64,000 nt of DNA, taken from IMG/VR virus record IMGVR_UViG_3300028591_000073, positions 230,549-294,548 of that record, one strand, 5' to 3'. Position 1 is the first letter of the stretch. Every line of letters starts with the position of its first letter. The notes below the pieces were generated by a model that saw nothing but the letters and a program-made list of their open reading frames with translations, was not told where the DNA came from and did not search any database. Of this stretch, positions 1 to 17,062 are shown in pieces. Source of the stretch: a virus. Lineage: Duplodnaviria > Caudoviricetes. The translations under genes and the position numbers were made by a program.

Positions 1-1164
1 TTAGACCGAATCATGGATCGAGAAGACACAAATATCGCCGAAGTATTAATGTCAAATGTGAAGAATGTATTTGTTTATTTAGAAACCAAATTAAGAACAG
101 CTTCTACGATTCATGAATTCCGTCAAGTAACAGACGCATATAATTGGTTATTCTTGGTTGATCCCATTCGTAACTGGAGTGATTCTACCTCTTATGATAC
201 AGATGAATTGTTGGTACAATCTTATGGAATTACATTGGCTGAATTAAATGTATTGAAGTATTTCTTCTATGGTGACGAAACCGATGCATCCAAAATCACA
301 TTTACATTTCAAGATACCATATACCAGATCCCAGTGTATGATATATTAAATCAGAATGTATTGTCATTGCCATATCCATTCGACAATCAAGAATTTGTGA
401 AAGTATGTAATCTTACAGTTTCTAAATGGAAGAATAGAACACTTGATAATGCTGAGATTACCAATGATACCATTCGTTTAAATTATCAAGATATTATCCA
501 AGATAAGATATTGTTAGATGTCTCTGGATCACAATATGGACCAACTTCATTTGAAGCACTATTGTATCGAGAGAATCCAAAGATTTATCGTGCATTACAA
601 CAAATGAAAGGTGATGGAGATCAGTTATTGATTCTGATGAGAAGTATCATTCGTGCATTGGAAATACAAACAAATTCTTCATTATCTGCATTGGAGTTTG
701 AAGCAACTGGTGAAAAAGAATACATTCGTATCTTAAAAGAAGTCATTACCTATTTCAAATCCTATATGGTAGAATTTACCAAAGAGGAATTCCAATATAT
801 CTTCGGTGGATTATTCGATCATGGTGGCAATCCCAACATGCTGGCATTGTTCGATGAAATCAATCATGTCACACTTAGAATCTTACCAAAAGATGCATTA
901 CACTTGTATGATGTTTCTTATGCAGATGCACGTGTCATTATCAAAGACGATGTATCCAAGTTCTTTTATGATGATGCGATCTTCCGAATTAAAACCACAT
1001 ACAAAAAATTGAAAGAGTTTGGATATCCGATATGGTTTGATAACGGATACTGGATTGACCAAACACCATTTGATGGATTAACTGATAATACAAAATTGAT
1101 TGCCGAATTTCTTTCAGATTCTTCGGGAACATACAAAATCATCATCAATCAAGAGCATTCGTGA
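1..1164 (+). CDS. Virion structural/baseplate-like protein, C-terminal part (frame open from the window edge)
   Basis: Frame 1 is open from nt 1 to TGA at 1164. The motif ILKEVITYFKSYMVEF resembles the FKSY motif of large phiKZ/AR9-like virion proteins (from recall). Confidence 0.45.
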   Translation, partial: LDRIMDREDTNIAEVLMSNVKNVFVYLETKLRTASTIHEFRQVTDAYNWLFLVDPIRNWSDSTSYDTDELLVQSYGITLAELNVLKYFFYGDETDASKITFTFQDTIYQIPVYDILNQNVLSLPYPFDNQEFVKVCNLTVSKWKNRTLDNAEITNDTIRLNYQDIIQDKILLDVSGSQYGPTSFEALLYRENPKIYRALQQMKGDGDQLLILMRSIIRALEIQTNSSLSALEFEATGEKEYIRILKEVITYFKSYMVEFTKEEFQYIFGGLFDHGGNPNMLALFDEINHVTLRILPKDALHLYDVSYADARVIIKDDVSKFFYDDAIFRIKTTYKKLKEFGYPIWFDNGYWIDQTPFDGLTDNTKLIAEFLSDSSGTYKIIINQEHS

Positions 1165-1255
1165 TGGCAATACAAGAAAAACAACTCCCGAATGGAAGGA
1201 GTTGCTTGCACAATATAATAGAGACGCGAATGGAACGTCTCATTACTTCACATCA

Positions 1256-1447
1256 TTAGTGCAATGGGATTGGTGTGAAGTTTTTAGACTCCGGATGAGT
1301 CCAATCAACAAACCAAACATTTCCGTATCCGGAATACTTTGGTTCGAGCGGACTTATCACAGAATTGGTAGCAGTTGATGTTGTCACATTTTTGAGTTCC
1401 TGCGACTTCTTTTCAACTGCTGCCTTTGCATAAGCAACCATGTCCAT
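1256..1447 (-). CDS. 63-aa early peptide, paralogue of 41856..42044
   Basis: SD AAGGAGGTGA precedes ATG 1447 (MDMVAYAK...). The C-terminus ISPLEPKYSGYGNVWFVDWTHPESKNFTPIPLH is conserved with 41856..42044. Confidence 0.8.
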   Translation of the reverse strand: MDMVAYAKAAVEKKSQELKNVTTSTATNSVISPLEPKYSGYGNVWFVDWTHPESKNFTPIPLH

Positions 1448-1511
1448 ATTATTCACCTCCTTTTCATATATTTTGATGAATGCAATCATGGACATCAAAC
1501 CTTTCAAATGT

Positions 1512-1570
1512 ATTTGATATATTTCTATATCAAATAAATCATATCTATATGAAAAGAAAGAATAATAGAA
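1512..1570 (-). promoter_or_regulatory. Putative phage early promoter with downstream hairpin (copy 1)
   Basis: Minus strand reads TTCTATTATTCTTTCTTTTCA-TATAGATATGATTTATTTGATATA-GAAA-TATATCAA, with the same spacing as the other copies. Confidence 0.7.
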
Positions 1571-1590
1571 CGGGGCCATATGGCCCCGTT
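1569..1590. terminator. CATATG-centred GC palindrome (probable intrinsic terminator)
   Basis: AACGGGGCCATATGGCCCCGTT lies just past the stop of the SbcC-like gene. Confidence 0.7.
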
Positions 1591-1598
1591 TATCTTTA

Positions 1599-4127
1599 TT
1601 ATTTTGAAATATCGATTGTGTGAACAATGTGTGAATATTGACCCGGTTGAATGCTGTGGGATATCATGAACATTTGTTCACAATTTAATGTGGACATCAT
1701 CTCGTTTAACATCAACACAAACATGTCACGAGTATTTGCATCGATATACGCATCTAACTCATCCACCAAAGCAACAAAGTGATTTGGAATCAGTGTGTGA
1801 GCCAATGCCAATGATAATGCCAATGATAATAATGTGGATTCTGATTGAGAGCCGGTTCTGATATCGTCAGACTTGTTTGTTCCACATCGGAATGGTAATG
1901 TGAATGTGGTTTCATCAATGATGGGTTTCAACAGTTCAATTTCACCATCATAAATGACATTCAACAATCGATTGGCAATCACCAATGCTTCATGGATTTT
2001 ATCACGAATGGCAATGACAGGTTTACCCTTAGTGGAGGAGGTGGCTTCTGCAATAATCTTATACCGTTCATCCATCAATAAATGATTCTCAATTTCATCA
2101 ACAGTTCTGGTATATTGTTTATCTGCGTTTTCCAAATTCTCCAATTGTTTTGCAACCATTTGTACTTGAGATTGGATTTGCAAATATTGTGTGTTAAGAT
2201 TCTCATATTCCAATTCTGCATTTGTCAATTGAGATTGTTGTTTGAACAATTTGTCATACCGAGATTGTACATCCTGAATGTCGATATTCTTAATAGAAGA
2301 TAATAGCATCTTCTTGTGGTCTATCTCAGATAACAATTGTTTGTATTCAGAAACTTGTTTATTACAATCTTCAATCTGTTGTTGTAATGATAGAATTTGA
2401 TTGTTTAATACATCCACGGGAATCTCATCTTTCATTTCAGAACTCATTAGATATTGAATATCTTTGATACGGGTTTCCACATCATGCAATTGTTTTACCA
2501 ATTGAAGATAATGCTCCTGTTGTACTGCAAGTTCTGTCCAATGTTTAATCTCTTCCACATCGATACCTGTTAAGCCATTCTTTAATCGAGTGATGATAGC
2601 TTCATAATGAAACAAAGCTTTTACTTCTGGAGCGATTTCAATCCGAATTAACCGACACATCGTTTGATAATTCTTTAATGCATGTTCGAAATTCTCCAAA
2701 TCATACTGGGTAAATTTACCGTCGTTAACAGACTCATATGAGCGGAAGTACTGCTGTAACTTATCAAACACATTCCGATACATGCAGTTTTCATATCGAC
2801 AATCTTCTTTGGAAACATAGTCTCCCTCAATCGTACTTAACATGTGACGAATTCTGGATATCGTACTTCTCTCCTTTTCAGAATCCATTAATACACTACC
2901 TTCCTGAATCAAGAATGCAGAGATGTCAATTCCTTGGAGAATCATATCACAAAACATTGTTAAATGTGTCCCGTTCAAACATAATGTGATTTCTTTGCAA
3001 GTATCATTCACACCATTTGCAATGTGTAACATCTGTGACAAAATAGCACTTGATGATTGAATTTGTACATCACTCAGTTCCAATCCTTTGATTTCAGATG
3101 TCAGCTTTTCTTGTAAATCCACCATGTTTTGATAATCATTCACAATTCGTTTACGGGATTGCTGTTCTGTTTCGATGTTGTGTTTTCTTTCATATACGAT
3201 ATCCAAATCTTTCATGAGTAACATGCTTTGACTATTGGCTTTGTTCATTGCTTCTGTAATTCGCAATTGTTCCTCCATCAAACTTTCATACAGATTGACA
3301 TCATACTGACCGATTTCTGTCACGACATTTTTGTATGTTACCAGCTTATTTTGCAAATCCATCAATTCCCCAGATAAGTTTTGTTGACGTAATGACGAAA
3401 TCATTCCAGTTAATCTATCTAATCTGGTTTTCATATCATTCATAGAATCCACCAATCCAGAATGTTGTGAACGTGTTTGTTCTAATGCAGTGCTCAATGT
3501 TTCATAAGAACCGTAATTAGATAACAGGAATTCTTTTGTTCTTGTTAATGAAGTAATCAGTTTGCTTGTATAACGATAATCTTCCGTGGCAAGTTTGTGT
3601 ATCTTGTCATAGATATCAATCCCCATTGCCTTGTTCATTAATGTCTTTCTTTGTGTGGAATTCATGTTGGCAAATGATGTTAATTGCGTTCCATTAATCA
3701 CAAACTGGAATGTGTATCGATTAATTCCAAACAACCTTTCAATCAAAGCATTGCATGTATTCACACCACCATTTGCATTTAATTCTTCTCCATCTTTCAT
3801 AATCGACGAAACAACAGTGTGTCCATTCTTGTTTGGATTGTACGTATGTGTGATGTTGTATACAGTACCATCCATTTCATATACAATGTTCTTGACTCCC
3901 ACTTCACCTTTGAGGATTTGTGGTGTGTCACTTCTTTCATCCCCAGTCAGATTGATGGAAGAGAAGGGATGCAGCTTCTGAATCAATACGGTTTTCCCGC
4001 AACGGTTTCTACCATATATCTGGATAATGGGTTTGTCAATTTTGTCAAAACAAAATTCAATTTCGTGTTTACCGGATGCGGCATACACATCTGCAAAGTT
4101 TACCAATTTAATATACATAATTTTCAT
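1599..4127 (-). CDS. sbcC: SbcC/Rad50/SMC-family ATPase
   Basis: Walker A GRNRCGKT, long coiled coil with central CxxxxC (CRYENC), signature-like GSQSE, Walker B LVDELD and H-loop ISH. SD GGAGG precedes ATG 4127. Confidence 0.85.
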   Translation of the reverse strand: MKIMYIKLVNFADVYAASGKHEIEFCFDKIDKPIIQIYGRNRCGKTVLIQKLHPFSSINLTGDERSDTPQILKGEVGVKNIVYEMDGTVYNITHTYNPNKNGHTVVSSIMKDGEELNANGGVNTCNALIERLFGINRYTFQFVINGTQLTSFANMNSTQRKTLMNKAMGIDIYDKIHKLATEDYRYTSKLITSLTRTKEFLLSNYGSYETLSTALEQTRSQHSGLVDSMNDMKTRLDRLTGMISSLRQQNLSGELMDLQNKLVTYKNVVTEIGQYDVNLYESLMEEQLRITEAMNKANSQSMLLMKDLDIVYERKHNIETEQQSRKRIVNDYQNMVDLQEKLTSEIKGLELSDVQIQSSSAILSQMLHIANGVNDTCKEITLCLNGTHLTMFCDMILQGIDISAFLIQEGSVLMDSEKERSTISRIRHMLSTIEGDYVSKEDCRYENCMYRNVFDKLQQYFRSYESVNDGKFTQYDLENFEHALKNYQTMCRLIRIEIAPEVKALFHYEAIITRLKNGLTGIDVEEIKHWTELAVQQEHYLQLVKQLHDVETRIKDIQYLMSSEMKDEIPVDVLNNQILSLQQQIEDCNKQVSEYKQLLSEIDHKKMLLSSIKNIDIQDVQSRYDKLFKQQSQLTNAELEYENLNTQYLQIQSQVQMVAKQLENLENADKQYTRTVDEIENHLLMDERYKIIAEATSSTKGKPVIAIRDKIHEALVIANRLLNVIYDGEIELLKPIIDETTFTLPFRCGTNKSDDIRTGSQSESTLLSLALSLALAHTLIPNHFVALVDELDAYIDANTRDMFVLMLNEMMSTLNCEQMFMISHSIQPGQYSHIVHTIDISK

Positions 4128-5410: not shown

Positions 5411-6559
5411 ATGAGTAACGAAGTTATGAACAACACACAGGAAAACACATTTGCAGCAAGCCTTGGTAACCACATTTGCGTAGGCCTTGGTAATACCGGG
5501 ACCAACATTGTGACTGAGATTGCATCCAGACAGTCCTTGACGGATGTTGATTTGTATTCCGTCGATTCTGTTGTATCTGCAACAGCGATGAAGAACATCA
5601 ATCGCATCAAGACAATTCCGATTATTACAGATGCAAAACAGGGTTCTGGTCGTAACAGAGAACGTGGTGCTTGGATGTTTGAAGAGCATCTCGAGAATCA
5701 TGCATTTGACAAATTGTTTGAAAAGTGTATGAATGCCAAAACTCCCATTGTTGTTGTCACATCTGCAGCAGGTGGTACAGGTTCTGGTTCCACACCGGTG
5801 TTCTGTAAAGGACTTGCAAAATATGCAATGGAACATGAAATGGTACCTCCGCAGGTAATTCCGATTATCGTTTGCCCCAGCATGGAAGACCCGACAGCAT
5901 ATCATCTCAATAGCAATGACTTGTTTATGGAATTGGCAGAGGCAGATATCAAGACATATGCCGTATTCCGCAATGTTGCTGGTGATTCCAATTATGCACC
6001 CATCAACAAAGAGATTGTTGATTTAATCGAAATCATCTTTGGCAAGAAATATGGAATGACCAATCTCGACAGTATCGATGATTCTGACCTTGATACTATC
6101 CTCTGGACACCTGGTAGATTCGTGGCTGTATCTGCAAAGGCAAATGATATTACAAATCTGACACGTCAGATTACACGTAAGATGTTCACCGGTTTCCAGC
6201 CTTCATGGACAGATGAGGAAGCGAGACAGTACACCTTCATGTCCGCTTATAGTCTGAAATCCATGTTTGCAGGTGAAGACTTCAAACAGGTGTTTGATGA
6301 AGTCAGAAGCAGAATTCATTCTGTATTTGATGAATATCGTCATATCGAACAGGTGGACAACGGTGGTGAAGTAGAAGCCACTGTGATTATCGCAGGACTC
6401 CCCAGACCAGAACTCAAAATGATTCAGACCGAATTCAATGGTGCTGAAGGCATTGGTGATGGTATGAAGAGAGCAGCTCGTCCGAAGTTCTTGACACAGA
6501 GAAAGCCGGTTACGACAAAGAGTAAAGACGGTAAGACAACCGTTAATTGGAGCAAGTAA
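5411..6559 (+). CDS. phuZ: Tubulin/FtsZ-family GTPase (PhuZ/TubZ-like)
   Basis: GLGNTGTNI (T1), GSGRNRERG (T3), AAGGTGSG (tubulin signature), IDDSD (T7). Confidence 0.88.
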   Translation: MSNEVMNNTQENTFAASLGNHICVGLGNTGTNIVTEIASRQSLTDVDLYSVDSVVSATAMKNINRIKTIPIITDAKQGSGRNRERGAWMFEEHLENHAFDKLFEKCMNAKTPIVVVTSAAGGTGSGSTPVFCKGLAKYAMEHEMVPPQVIPIIVCPSMEDPTAYHLNSNDLFMELAEADIKTYAVFRNVAGDSNYAPINKEIVDLIEIIFGKKYGMTNLDSIDDSDLDTILWTPGRFVAVSAKANDITNLTRQITRKMFTGFQPSWTDEEARQYTFMSAYSLKSMFAGEDFKQVFDEVRSRIHSVFDEYRHIEQVDNGGEVEATVIIAGLPRPELKMIQTEFNGAEGIGDGMKRAARPKFLTQRKPVTTKSKDGKTTVNWSK

Positions 6560-8285: not shown

Positions 8286-9551
8286 TTAGTTTTTACACAA
8301 TTGCATGGTAGATTGTGCAACATATAAATCATCACCTTGATTGGTTAATACATGATTCACAAACCTTGCTCGATATAATCCACCAATATTTGCACCACGG
8401 ATTGTTGTATCAAACATCAGATTATATCTGGTATTAATGTGCATATCACCAATATCTGCACCAATGATTGACATATCTACTTTGGTTATTTTTTCTTTGA
8501 TTCTTGCCGCATTGGATGTTGCAATGAAAGGATTCATGTGTTTGTGTAAGACGTTTGGGATATTTTCATTACCATAAATCTCGTTTGTTTTATATTGATA
8601 TAACTCTTTTAATGAAGCAGATTGAATTTCGTTTGTATTTACATTTACAGCACCGATATTCTCAGCTTGCATCAAACGTTCAATATCGGATTCTGATAAG
8701 ATTGAAATATTGTTGAATAGGATCGTCATCCAATATTCATTATTGGAATATTTTTTTAATCCAGCCATATCAGAATCACTGAGGGAACTGAGTACGCGGA
8801 TTGGAACGATGTTTTGATATAAATTAGAATCCGTATTCGTCAGATATAATTGATCAATATCACCATAGATCTGTGCGCCTTTCTCATATAATCCATAATA
8901 AGTATCGAAATATGCGAGTGTTTGTAATAGATTTAGATTTGGAATCAATACTTGATCGAAGCATGCTTGTTGATTTAACGGGTCTTTATGATAACACATC
9001 ACATTTCCTCGTTGGAATAAATCATTAATAATAGACTCCAATCCCATATTTTTATAAACGGATTGTGTTTGTCTTCTCATATAGTAAACTAATGATTGAT
9101 GATACCCGTATAATTCAATTGGTACTTTTGGTGTTTGATTCAGATCTGATGTAATTTTAACACCATCGCGATATTGATCCATTGTGGATGTTGGCATATT
9201 CTTATTTTCAATATATACTTTCATGTTGAATTGGATATTGTGTGCTCCATTCACAATCGTTGGTTTTGTTTGGTCATCTTCCAATAAGTAGATATTCCCA
9301 TATAAGTTGCCAACCATTTCAATCTCATCAGGATATTCTGTGATATTTTGCAACAATTCCAAATCAGACTGTAATCGAATTCGAATAATGGGAAAAATGT
9401 GTGTATCATAATTATGCATAAAGGAAATCGATACAATTTCAGATTGGTTGATTTGATAATTAGTTCCATGTACGGATAATACAAGATTGACTGTATATAA
9501 TGTTTGATATGTTTTTTCCATTGAAATACCTCCTAAATTAACCCCCGACAT
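8286..9551 (-). CDS. Putative baseplate hub-like virion protein
   Basis: 421-aa ORF (probable start near 9521 after SD AGGAGG); general hub-like organisation in a structural neighbourhood. Function is inferred. Confidence 0.4.
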   Translation of the reverse strand: MSGVNLGGISMEKTYQTLYTVNLVLSVHGTNYQINQSEIVSISFMHNYDTHIFPIIRIRLQSDLELLQNITEYPDEIEMVGNLYGNIYLLEDDQTKPTIVNGAHNIQFNMKVYIENKNMPTSTMDQYRDGVKITSDLNQTPKVPIELYGYHQSLVYYMRRQTQSVYKNMGLESIINDLFQRGNVMCYHKDPLNQQACFDQVLIPNLNLLQTLAYFDTYYGLYEKGAQIYGDIDQLYLTNTDSNLYQNIVPIRVLSSLSDSDMAGLKKYSNNEYWMTILFNNISILSESDIERLMQAENIGAVNVNTNEIQSASLKELYQYKTNEIYGNENIPNVLHKHMNPFIATSNAARIKEKITKVDMSIIGADIGDMHINTRYNLMFDTTIRGANIGGLYRARFVNHVLTNQGDDLYVAQSTMQLCKN

Positions 9552-12895: not shown

Positions 12896-15286
12896 GTGAT
12901 GAGAATGCCAGAAGTCAATCAAGATTTATTGATCGGATTGGTCAATGATGTATTGGGTAAAGATGAAATCGAAGCTCGTAAAGATGAAATCGAAGATACC
13001 ATTACTGGAATATTGAAATCTTATAATTTGTCAACAGATTTGTCATTTGTGGAAAAGATGGCAAAATTGAAGTTCCATACAAACAAGGGAGAAGAAGTTG
13101 ATATTGAAGAACTTCCGTCAGAATTGAAAGATGCTGCATTCTTACCGGTAAATACAATTGCGGATATTGCATTACGTCAAGATCTGGATATGATCATATC
13201 ACAACTGCCAGAATGGTATAACGCCATTCAAGTTACCAGAGATGCAGTATGTGAAGCAGATACCGTTGATGGTAAATTATCACGTGTGATTCAATTTGAT
13301 CGTGTGGCATTAAATGATCAACAGAAAGCTTCTAATATTGCAAAAATAGAAGAAGTAGAAGATCGAATGGAATTAAATCATATTATCAAAAATCATATTG
13401 TGTTTAACACATTGCTGTATGGGGAGTCCTATGTATACACAATTCCGTATGCAAAAGTATTCTCTGACTTATATCAATTCCGTTTAAATGATGAAAATAA
13501 ACGTAAATCATCATCCGTATCTAACATGTTTGAAATATCATCTACCATGAAAGGATATGGATATGGAGAACAAACCATTGAGGTTTCTTTGAGTGATACC
13601 ATCATCCAGGAATCCAACAAGTATAAAAATAAGAACAATACTGTCTTCACAGAACAAGAAATCATGGATATCAATCCTATGTATCATGGTCATACATTTC
13701 ATGAAGATGGAACAGAGGATAAGAAATCACAAAAGGAATATGATGAACAATATGAAGCACAATTAAAAGAAATTGCAGATAATATTTCTTATATTGAACA
13801 AGATATTGCATTACCTGTGATTGAACAATCTGCTCATGATTTAAAAGCGGTGTATGAAGCAAAATATCGTGAAACAAAGAATGACACCGATGTGAAAGCA
13901 TTCTTTGAAGAAGTGGTAGAAGATGGGATGAAATCAGAACCAACCACATTTGACAAACATTTTTCCCGTATCAAAGGATGTTACATTCGTATCTTACCAG
14001 CAACGAAATTGATTCCAATTCGTATTGATAGAACTGTGATCGGATATTACTATGTGTCTGACCAGACTCGTACGGAAAAGAGTGGTGAAAGACGTAATTC
14101 TGGATTGAGTGGTTATACATTAAGAACACCATCGATTGGCTATGATACATTCTCTCCGGACCAGATGTTCTGTGAGAAATTGGCAACTAAAATCATCAAT
14201 AACTTTGATTTGAAATTCATGCGTGATAATACGGCATTACATGAACAAATCGTTGCGATTCTGCAATCTCACAAATTTAATGAAGCGATGTTACGTTTCA
14301 TTTATATTCCAGCAGAACATGTTTCACAGTTTACCATTAACAAAGATGGTATGGGATGTGGACATTCCATGATGGAACCTGGATTGATTGCGGCAAGAAT
14401 GTACATGTTCTTGAAACTGTACACTGTGCTGTATCAGATTAACAATTCACAGATTCGTGTTTATAATTTGAGAATGAGTGGTATCGATAAGAATTATCGT
14501 CAATTAGTACAAGAAACCATTCGTAAGTTTGCCGCTCGTAGAATCACAGCCAATGATATTTTCAATTATCGTTCTTCCATGACAAAGGTAAGTGGTGGTT
14601 CAGAATTGATTATGCCAATGGGTGCATCGGGTGAAGCACCAATCCAAGTATCATCTATCGATGCTGCAGACTCACCCATTTCATCCGACTTAATGGAACA
14701 ATTGAAAGCAGAAGCTATTAACTCCACTCCAGTACCAGCTTTGTTATTGACAAATGGTGCTGTATCGGAGATTGAATTTGCAAAGGAAACAGAATTGGCA
14801 AATACCAAATTCAATTCTTTTGTCTCAGGTGTTAAGATTGAATTGAATCATGATACTACAAAATTCTATCGTAAGATACTGAAATGGGAAACTGATATTG
14901 AACCAGAGTTATTAAAAGATATGACATTCTCCTTCCATATGTCAACATCCAAAACATTGAATGTGACATCGGAAAAGATTTCCACATTTGATGCTGTATG
15001 GCAACTTGTCATGAAAACCTTTTTAACAAAGGAAGAAAGACAAGAAGGAGATGGAGAAGAAGGAGACACACCAGTTGCACGTGCTTTAAAGAAGAAAATG
15101 ATTCAAAAGTATCTTCCAGAAATTGATGTGGAAGACTTTGAGAATATGGCAAAAGAAGCACGTGATGAAGCAAACCAGAATAAATTAAACGAAGTGGATC
15201 CAAATAAGAATCTCTTGGATAGTTCTGTTCCCGATGCAGGAGATGCCGGCGGTGGAGTAGATGATATGAATGGAGGTATGTTCTAA
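12896..15286 (+). CDS. Portal protein (jumbo phage type)
   Basis: 796 aa; TLLYGESYVY, IPAEHV...GHSMMEP, IRVY, TPVPA and EFAKE...N follow the order seen in T4/phiKZ-type portals. Confidence 0.7.
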   Translation: MMRMPEVNQDLLIGLVNDVLGKDEIEARKDEIEDTITGILKSYNLSTDLSFVEKMAKLKFHTNKGEEVDIEELPSELKDAAFLPVNTIADIALRQDLDMIISQLPEWYNAIQVTRDAVCEADTVDGKLSRVIQFDRVALNDQQKASNIAKIEEVEDRMELNHIIKNHIVFNTLLYGESYVYTIPYAKVFSDLYQFRLNDENKRKSSSVSNMFEISSTMKGYGYGEQTIEVSLSDTIIQESNKYKNKNNTVFTEQEIMDINPMYHGHTFHEDGTEDKKSQKEYDEQYEAQLKEIADNISYIEQDIALPVIEQSAHDLKAVYEAKYRETKNDTDVKAFFEEVVEDGMKSEPTTFDKHFSRIKGCYIRILPATKLIPIRIDRTVIGYYYVSDQTRTEKSGERRNSGLSGYTLRTPSIGYDTFSPDQMFCEKLATKIINNFDLKFMRDNTALHEQIVAILQSHKFNEAMLRFIYIPAEHVSQFTINKDGMGCGHSMMEPGLIAARMYMFLKLYTVLYQINNSQIRVYNLRMSGIDKNYRQLVQETIRKFAARRITANDIFNYRSSMTKVSGGSELIMPMGASGEAPIQVSSIDAADSPISSDLMEQLKAEAINSTPVPALLLTNGAVSEIEFAKETELANTKFNSFVSGVKIELNHDTTKFYRKILKWETDIEPELLKDMTFSFHMSTSKTLNVTSEKISTFDAVWQLVMKTFLTKEERQEGDGEEGDTPVARALKKKMIQKYLPEIDVEDFENMAKEARDEANQNKLNEVDPNKNLLDSSVPDAGDAGGGVDDMNGGMF

Positions 15287-17037
15287 TGGCTAAGGATAAC
15301 ATGATTGTTGAAAAGACAGCAACTGGAGCAATTATCCATCAACCCACTCTGGAAGTGAAACGTAAAGCATTACAATACTTCTCCCTTCCAGATCCACAAC
15401 GTGAATATTTCATTTATTCTGGATCAGACATCAATCGTCGACCAATCTTTGGAAATGAACATGATGTATTATATATTTCATCTGGATTCTTAAAAATCAA
15501 AGATCCGGTAATTGATAAATTAAGATTACAAGCGACCAGAGTGGCATCACGTGATGGTGCTCCTATTCAAATTACAATGAATCGAAAACCTCGTTCTCAA
15601 TTACAAGTTGACTGTATCCAAATGATGGTAGAAACCGGATATTCCAAAATGACATGTGAAGTGAAGCCCGGTGTTGGCTTTCTGGCACCCGTATCGAGTA
15701 ATCGGTATGTTAAATTACCCTTTGAATTGCTGGGACGCTCTAATGCTCATTGTACTACAACATGATTCCGAACAGGAATGAGTGTGAATGTGACGAAAGT
15801 AAAAAGAAACAATGAGATGGTGTATGGTTAAATCCTAAACATTATTAAGAATGAGCAATCAGCAGCGAAGCTCCGAATAGGAGAACGTTCAACGACTATC
15901 TCGAAAGAGAGTAGGGAAACCGAAGCGGAGGGCATCCTATGTGAGGATGATGATATAGTCTGAAGCGGAAAGACATTCATGGCATTATCCGTTATCAGTC
16001 AGCTTGGAAAGAAACCATTGATTATTGCTCCCACGGCATTATTGAAGAATCAATGGATTGAGAATTTTACAGATTTGGGTGTTGATGTAAATGATATTGC
16101 AACACGTATTTATGATGGACCGAACAAGAAAGTATGTGTTGTCACCATATCAGCAATTGAAAATGAATTACGTAAAGATTGGCAAGGTCTCATGAATGTA
16201 TTGAAACAAGCGAACTATGGTATTCGTATTACAGACGAAGCACATCTACATTTGAAGGGTGTGTTGAAATTTGATGCTATTGCCAATATCAAACGTAATT
16301 ATTATCTGTCCGCAACACTTGGTAGATCAGATGAACAAGAGGATGATGTTCTCAATCGAGCATTATTAGATGCAGATCGATTCGTCGGTGATAAACGATA
16401 TGAGGAATATCAAGATGAATACATCAATGTGTATCTTCAAGATATTTACTACAATGCTTCTCGTGAAATATGTGAGGAACATTTTCGATATGGGAAAAAG
16501 GGACTAATCAGTGCAACATATTATCGTATGTTAATGGATTATCAACATGGCATTCCCTTTTATCGGAATGCATGTCATATGGTGAAAGTTGCAGAGAAAT
16601 TGAAAGTACAGGGTAAAGTATTATTGTTATTACCATTACTCGATGCAATTGATCGTATTAAAGAAGAAATGATGAAAGATCCATACTTCCGTCAATTTAA
16701 GATTGCATCTGTCGATGGTAGTATGAAATTATCCGAAAGACAACAAGCGTTTGATCAAGATATCATCTTAGCAACAACAATGAGTTGTGGCACGGGTGTG
16801 GATATTTCTAACTTAGGAGCGGTTGTTAACTTTGATCAAAAGTCTTCTTTGATTATCTTAGAGCAGATAGTTGGTCGTTTGCGTAATCGTGGATTCCAAA
16901 CATTCTATATTGATATTTGTGATCATGTAAAATATGCAAGGGCATTTGAAAACTGGGGAATGAAGCGTCGACAATACATGCCTTACTTTCCTGGCACCTC
17001 TCCGAAGATGCACATGCTACCAAAGATTATGTGTTAA
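15286..17037 (+). CDS. SF2 DEAH helicase (UvsW-like), intron-split: join(15286..15674,15966..17037), 486 aa
   Basis: Splicing restores Walker A KPGVGKT. Q-motif PRSQLQ, IIAPT, DEAH, LSATLGR, TGVDI and EQIVGRLR are present. Confidence 0.88.
15675..15965 (+). mobile_element. Group I self-splicing intron, 291 nt, no homing endonuclease
   Basis: P GAATTGCTGGGA (15724), Q AATCAGCAG (15857), R GTTCAACGACTAT (to 15899), S GATATAGTC (to 15960). P1 has U15674.G15685; P3 is 15718-24/15926-32; P8 is 15933-49; P10 pairs CTTTCTG with CGGAAAG; terminal G at 15965. Confidence 0.9.
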
Positions 17038-17042
17038 TGAAT

Positions 17043-17062
17043 GAGGGCCCATATGGGCCCTC
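17043..17062. terminator. CATATG-centred palindrome
   Basis: GAGGGCCCATATGGGCCCTC after the helicase stop. Confidence 0.7.

Follow-up and report, generated by a model that had tools for sequence, protein, structure and literature searches.

We describe a group I intron that interrupts the Walker A motif of a jumbo-phage helicase gene and that, as judged from sequence and with a probability of roughly 0.78, is active, endonuclease-free and spliced by the normal two-step guanosine pathway without a P9 domain. Comparison among orthologues establishes, at the sequence level, its splice sites, an intact and covarying P1–P8 core and the lack of both P9 and P9.0. The stretch analysed (hereafter the window) is 64 kb long and forms the end of a virus record of 294,548 bp. 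The window carries genes for beta subunits of a multisubunit RNA polymerase, for a terminase and PhiKZ-type virion proteins, and for PhuZ tubulin (a PhuZ-like gene lies at positions 5411–6559). The split gene encodes an SF2 helicase, and its nearest cultured relatives (21–27% identity) come from AR9/PBS1, RisingSun and jumbo phages of Staphylococcus. Based on these encoded proteins and on the nearest cultured relatives of the helicase, we assign the source virus to the PhiKZ/AR9-like jumbo phages. A phmmer comparison for chimallin, using Goslar gp189 as the one query and of low sensitivity, returned no matches. Sample names of relatives, where given, point to the ruminant gut.

Splice sites and structure of the intron

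Both splice sites can be set without any RNA model, because intronless homologues and the reconstructed reading frame agree. Homologues L003 and L004 run uninterrupted across the same Walker A motif, intronless proteins P0131, P0154 and P0164 are 486 aa long, and exon 1 (389 nt) joined to exon 2 (1072 nt) yields 486 codons plus a stop. [quoted passage not shown] Alternative 5′ or 3′ sites would cost a Walker A glycine or leave no final G, and conflict with the intronless alleles.

The base pairs thought to define these sites also stood up to comparison. P1 (15670–74 with 15685–89, including U15674·G15685) is kept in all 17 orthologues compared, with one compensatory change. P10 has the proposed seven pairs in the window, one of them a U·G, and its first four pairs recur in 17 of 17 orthologues, covarying with synonymous exon positions. 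Where the exon changes synonymously, at P1 and at positions +1 and +4, the guide sequence changes with it, also in the P9-less orthologue L040; since such guide–exon covariation is otherwise hard to explain, it argues that these exact splice sites are in use.

Table 1 Layout of the split helicase gene and its intron (window positions)
Feature	Position	Strand	Details and evidence
Helicase exon 1, 389 nt	15286..15674	+	Stops within the Walker A Val codon; last 5 nt form P1; junction by intronless homologues
Group I intron, 291 nt, ORF-less, IA2-like, without P9 and P9.0	15675..15965	+	Rfam, orthologues, covariation
Internal guide: P10 strand 15678–84 (with 15966–72) and P1 strand 15685–89 (with 15670–74)	15678..15689	+	
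P2, 8 bp, with GNRA loop L2 (candidate P8 contact)	15690..15709	+	Compensatory change in 6/8 pairs
5′ strands of P3, 15718–24 (with 15926–32), and P4, 15728–33 (with 15859–64)	15718..15733	+	
P5 (15738–40 with 15853–55) and long four-helix extension, P5a-d-like	15738..15855	+	
P6/P6a	15865..15888	+	Covariation
P7 5′ strand; guanosine-binding pair G15894–C15960	15892..15898	+	G-C fixed in 17/17; four other pairs compensatory
P7.1 (15899–910) and P7.2 (15914–21), IA2-type insertions	15899..15921	+	Rfam, covariation
P8	15933..15949	+	Rfam, covariation
J8/7 and P7 3′ strand (15956–61)	15950..15961	+	Rfam, covariation
3-nt linker where the P9 domain would be, then terminal G15965	15962..15965	+	
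Helicase exon 2, ResIII/DEAD and Helicase_C domains	15966..17037	+	Spliced product 486 aa
Terminator-like hairpin ending the helicase unit	17043..17062	+	Consensus match only

All of P2, P3, an extended P5, P7 insertions and P8, listed in the earlier note, are present according to Rfam and orthologue covariation (Table 1), and the catalytic features of a group I intron are there: a U·G pair at the 5′ site, the P3–P7–P8 and P4–P6 core, a G-binding pair, a terminal G, P10 and a restored frame. The distance from P7 to the 3′ end is indeed short, but it is 3 nt (15962–64) and not the 5 nt first given, since A15892–U15961 adds a P7 pair (A-U in 6 orthologues, U-A in 11). With a linker of 3 nt, neither a P9 nor a 2-bp P9.0 can form in the window intron. 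The covariance-model check suggested earlier bears this out: Rfam model RF00028 matches 15685–15982 (70.1 bits, E 9e-16, gathering score 50), and its P9 columns are occupied solely by bases from exon 2. Introns of this type mislead boundary calls, with the Rfam match overrunning the 3′ boundary by 17 nt and the helicase annotated as two broken ORFs.

With P7.1 and P7.2 inserted after P7 and ahead of the P3 3′ strand, the intron shows a feature of subgroup IA2. Introns of this subgroup, such as those of T4 and Twort, carry a P9 with a GNRA loop that docks on P5, together with P9.1/P9.2. By sequence the helicase intron is thus IA2-like and not canonical IA2, as the docking GNRA P9 and P9.1/P9.2 are both missing.

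Conservation of P9-less orthologues

Protein and DNA searches recovered 18 full introns and one partial intron, all at the identical site; none of the 18 contains an ORF, extending to the whole set the earlier observation that there is no homing endonuclease. Eight of the introns, the window included, lack P9, with linkers of 3 nt (window, L060, L037, L038), 5 nt (L040), 11 nt (L059, L063) and 13 nt (L007). The linkers differ in sequence from one intron to another, and the assemblies come from both JGI and ENA. Two pattern scans of viral sequences for short tails yielded solely L007, and a scan of genome contigs returned mostly chance matches plus one known locus. The minimal P9-less subclass postulated in the earlier note is therefore real and conserved, with eight orthologous members and covarying helices.

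Across the 17 aligned introns, 94.3% of cells are paired (34–42% in a slid-partner control) and compensatory change is seen at 39 of the 85 pairs; covariation extends over P3, P5, P6, P7 and P8 and includes four of the six P7 pairs. Six P9-less members, 85–98% identical to one another, account for 8 compensatory, 7 one-sided and 4 broken pairs. Compared with the window, exon 2 shows dN of 0.01–0.19 and dS of 0.3–2.8, and the introns are 80–98% identical to that of the window; both exons are open and under purifying selection, with synonymous sites nearing saturation (the exon 1 comparison for L038 was out of register and was excluded).

These data bear on whether the intron is decayed, or its P9 lost to an assembly deletion, with the helicase dead or dispensable. 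The patchy occurrence of the intron among near-identical alleles would fit such a reading, which we nonetheless consider extremely unlikely: P9 is absent from eight independent assemblies with differing tails, which argues against an assembly deletion, and compensatory changes that build up after P9 loss, like the purifying selection on both open exons, argue against decay. The ORF of 159 aa predicted for unspliced RNA does exist; the suggestion that it gates helicase expression finds no support, as the product varies from 138 to 166 aa in relatives and its end is not conserved.

Reduced P9 elements at the helicase site

Eleven orthologues at the helicase site end in a 15–19-nt tail that forms a mini-P9 hairpin of 3–4 bp. 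Six P9-less introns form a single clade (97/98) within the family, and L040 is placed apart. Two separate losses within the family, L040 versus the six, are suggested by the tree; an AU test does not reject a single clade (p 0.115). Using outgroups that root the helicase intron family only moderately well, we infer that P9 went from full to mini to none, such that it would have been shed in steps from a 7-bp GNRA hairpin through a 3–4-bp mini hairpin to a bare linker.

In the mini-P9 orthologues (L039, L041, L052, L061 and others), both the tail and the 5′ end of the intron are complementary to positions +8 to +14 of exon 2. The tail–exon complementarity amounts to 5–7 Watson–Crick pairs (shuffle p <0.03 in 10 of 11, these being related sequences), with one compensatory change in L041/L052, and may represent a candidate switch, the 3′ site being masked until P10 has formed. 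The P9-less group has lost this complementarity.

This last point bears on a proposal, raised in the earlier note, that exon sequence stands in for P9, considered here as pairing of the tail, over the 3′ splice site, with exon positions +8 to +14. Such pairing looks true in the mini-P9 orthologues, and both cmscan and the MFE fold show a hairpin of this kind in the window. In all P9-less members, however, complementarity is at chance level (matches of 2–5 bp in shifting registers, p 0.06–1.0), the hairpin in the window would require U15961, which is a P7 base, and the relevant synonymous exon positions are free to vary in the P9-less group. We regard an exon-borne substitute as very unlikely in these introns.

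Proposed splicing without P9

Under the preferred reading of autonomous two-step splicing, P1 with its U·G pair would define the first step. In the second, the terminal G would reach the P7 pocket through the 3-nt tether, which would loop back past the end of P7, and P10 would align exon 2 as the sole base-paired guide to the 3′ site. The base following P7 pairs, in canonical introns, with the base preceding the terminal G; in A-form geometry, the span across a base pair is ~18 angstroms, which three nucleotides bridge. Since a direct link must bridge about one base pair (~18 angstroms), 3 nt would be close to the steric minimum for connecting P7 to the terminal G. The shortest linker among the 10 P9-less introns seen is 3 nt, and it is exactly 3 nt in four divergent orthologues.

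Folding without the L9–P5 contact would probably be borne by ancestral parts, namely the P5 extension, a contact between the L2 GNRA loop and P8, and P7.1/P7.2. The P5 extension, L2 loop and P7.1/P7.2 are older than the P9 loss, and from their distribution we read them as permissive redundancy. The idea that the P5 extension specifically compensates for P9 did not survive comparison, as a similar extension occurs in relatives with a full GNRA P9 (L012, L031); it is permissive at most. Phage contig L012 packs five group I introns into 2.9 kb (969–3800), one of which combines the same P5 extension with a GNRA P9. P10 is not longer where P9 is missing (4–10 contiguous pairs in P9-less versus 4–7 in mini-P9 introns), and among P10 length, exon pairing and the P5 extension we identified no cis feature that replaces the L9–P5 contact. 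The P5 receptor is changed in 2 of 6 P9-less and 1 of 11 mini-P9 introns, numbers too small to call relaxation.

Deletion studies of the Tetrahymena intron reportedly found P9 dispensable for core chemistry and important for efficient splicing. As cited in a study on engineered circularisation ribozymes (PMC11417360), removing P9.0 or P10 singly does not block the second step and removing both does. In the same system, an unstructured loop replacing P9.0 brought circularisation to <4% (PMC11417360), which counts against efficient P9-less splicing, as does the description of P9 as essential in PMC3873408 and in a 2025 database paper (PMC11835236) against P9-less splicing as such.

Rarity and further P9-less introns

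To place the helicase intron in context, we used 111 distinct matches to a J8/7–P7 motif in IMG/VR, a motif-limited sample drawn from the matches listed. Some 100 of these 111 listed matches have a 6–11-bp stem directly after P7, mostly GNRA-capped. Ten doubtful matches were inspected, of which three were not introns, three had an endonuclease-type ORF, three had a P9 stem and one (L191) was truly P9-less. By sequence, P9 thus appears to be absent from about 1 in 100 phage introns among the matches listed, and to have been lost at least three times overall.

L191 interrupts the Walker A motif of terL in another PhiKZ-like phage; its linker is 7 nt long and its P10 consists of 7 perfect base pairs. 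Empty alleles back the junction, and the sister introns L303 and L308 retain P9. [quoted passage not shown] The other case, an RNA polymerase intron of a Goslar-like phage (L346), has two bases where cultured Goslar has P9, and a 6-nt linker. At this locus (minus strand, about 8360–8850), tandem group I introns flank a micro-exon in the NADFDGD motif, and the second of them lacks P9. Like the helicase intron, L346 and L191 are endonuclease-free, have P9-bearing sisters at the same site and carry long peripheral insertions in P5 or P7; they differ in belonging to other genes and lineages, in their longer linkers and in that no mini-P9 intermediate was seen. We found no paper on the P9-less L191 or L346 introns. 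In the open-access literature, the search for natural group I introns without P9 gave one precedent, the trans-spliced Prasinoderma intron discussed below.

All three P9-less lineages found (helicase, terL and RNA polymerase) belong to PhiKZ-like jumbo phages, which raises the question of whether splicing in vivo needs help, with the L9–P5 contact replaced by an RNA-binding protein of host or phage, or by a separate RNA acting in trans. If a helper were shared among PhiKZ-like phages or their hosts and did the job of P9, P9 losses would be confined to these phages for that reason, and the helper would control the splicing of presumed-essential genes and explain why P9 was dropped from helicase, terminase and RNA polymerase introns. 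Such help would agree with the failure to find cis compensation in P10 length or exon pairing; group I introns are known to splice with the assistance of proteins (PMC3984707), and for the Prasinoderma intron, which also lacks P9, accessory factors or a third piece still missing have been put forward (PMC3873408). Against it, the core and peripheral helices of the helicase intron are unusually complete, a scan of the whole 294-kb record found no other group I introns or fragments, and the clustering consists of three cases, two of which came from searches begun at such phages. On balance we hold a need for help in vivo to be unlikely, and a shared PhiKZ-type helper likewise improbable.

Persistence, mobility and a neighbouring intein

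Empty alleles of the helicase gene are sisters of intron-bearing ones at 95–99% identity, and the phylogeny of the L050 intron departs from that of its host gene (grouping of L040 with L050 was rejected, p 0.0002). Because the intron has no endonuclease of its own, these empty sister alleles and the incongruence of L050 suggest repeated intron loss or transfer driven in trans. In L049, a free-standing HNH-NUMOD4 endonuclease gene (1166–2182) lies immediately downstream of an intron-bearing helicase and, by analogy, is a candidate driver of collaborative homing, for which there is precedent (PMC3984707).

The same helicase carries, in ~100 clusters (L002, L005, L006; P0143, P0149, P0165–P0274), a LAGLIDADG intein of ~358 aa after the Walker A lysine. 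The intein site lies 7 nt downstream of the intron site within the same Walker A motif, and intein, intron and empty alleles coexist among helicase genes >95% identical. No allele with both intron and intein was seen, and of 9 introns recovered through the 5′ end alone, none had the intein; an apparent double allele, P0071, is an intein allele interrupted by an assembly gap. By tblastn, neither the intein nor the L049 HNH endonuclease has a relative in the genome studied here. The intron is probably a near-neutral passenger and may be favoured for breaking the target of the LAGLIDADG intein; the 9 intein-free introns are suggestive of such blocking.

In L045 (2131–2480; also L046, L047 and L088), P8 of the orthologous intron contains an insert of ~340 nt that looks like an antisense unit, with an AT-rich motif (possibly an early promoter; six sites in the genome of the window), a structured body and a terminator-like end. 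The insert has no Rfam match, and its layout makes it a possible non-coding RNA gene within the intron.

Relation to known systems and significance

The helicase intron resembles the IA2 introns of phages T4 (td, nrdB, sunY) and Twort of Staphylococcus in its P7.1/P7.2, its U·G 5′ site, its terminal G and its insertion in a conserved motif. Its closest sequences come from Bacillus phage LY2 (portal intron, ON366411; core ~74% identical across 74% of the query), Enterocloster phage CB457P1 and Alicyclobacillus phage KKP_3916. The five nearest records have a 7-bp P9 with a GAAA loop and more 3′ structure, and four of them an ORF, whereas the helicase intron has 3 nt and no ORF.

The mitochondrial rnl intron Pa.rnl.1 of Prasinoderma coloniale is also a natural group I intron modelled without P9, a lack that its authors called very unusual (PMC3873408). 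It belongs to subgroup IB and is trans-spliced from pieces, with a third piece possible; the helicase intron, by contrast, is continuous in cis, has a 3-nt linker and belongs to a family with many orthologues in which P9 is reduced by degrees. In gut Jug jumbo phages (PMC12880540), essential genes likewise harbour inteins and group I introns free of ORFs. There the introns average ~206 nt, RNA reads show splicing for 37 of 76, and the phages have ~18 introns each, against one in the genome with the helicase intron. Engineered cis-circularisation ribozymes (PMC11417360) similarly consist of little beyond P1–P8, P10 and a terminal G; they are artificial and retain P9.0 or homology arms, and their yield and accuracy fall when the loop there is unpaired.

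Overall, the sequence comparisons give good support to viewing the helicase intron as a structural variant of a known ribozyme class for which natural controls are available. Its four-nucleotide ribozyme 3′ end may offer a useful start for circular-RNA and trans-splicing design. P9, P9.0 and the L9–P5 contact are standard group I parts, and databases call P9 essential; here nature appears to have deleted P9 stepwise at the helicase site, with linkers shrinking from 13 to 3 nt, and elsewhere at least two more times. The series makes it testable what P9 contributes and whether P10 and the G pocket suffice for choosing the 3′ splice site, and would thereby provide a natural test of the minimum RNA needed to find it.
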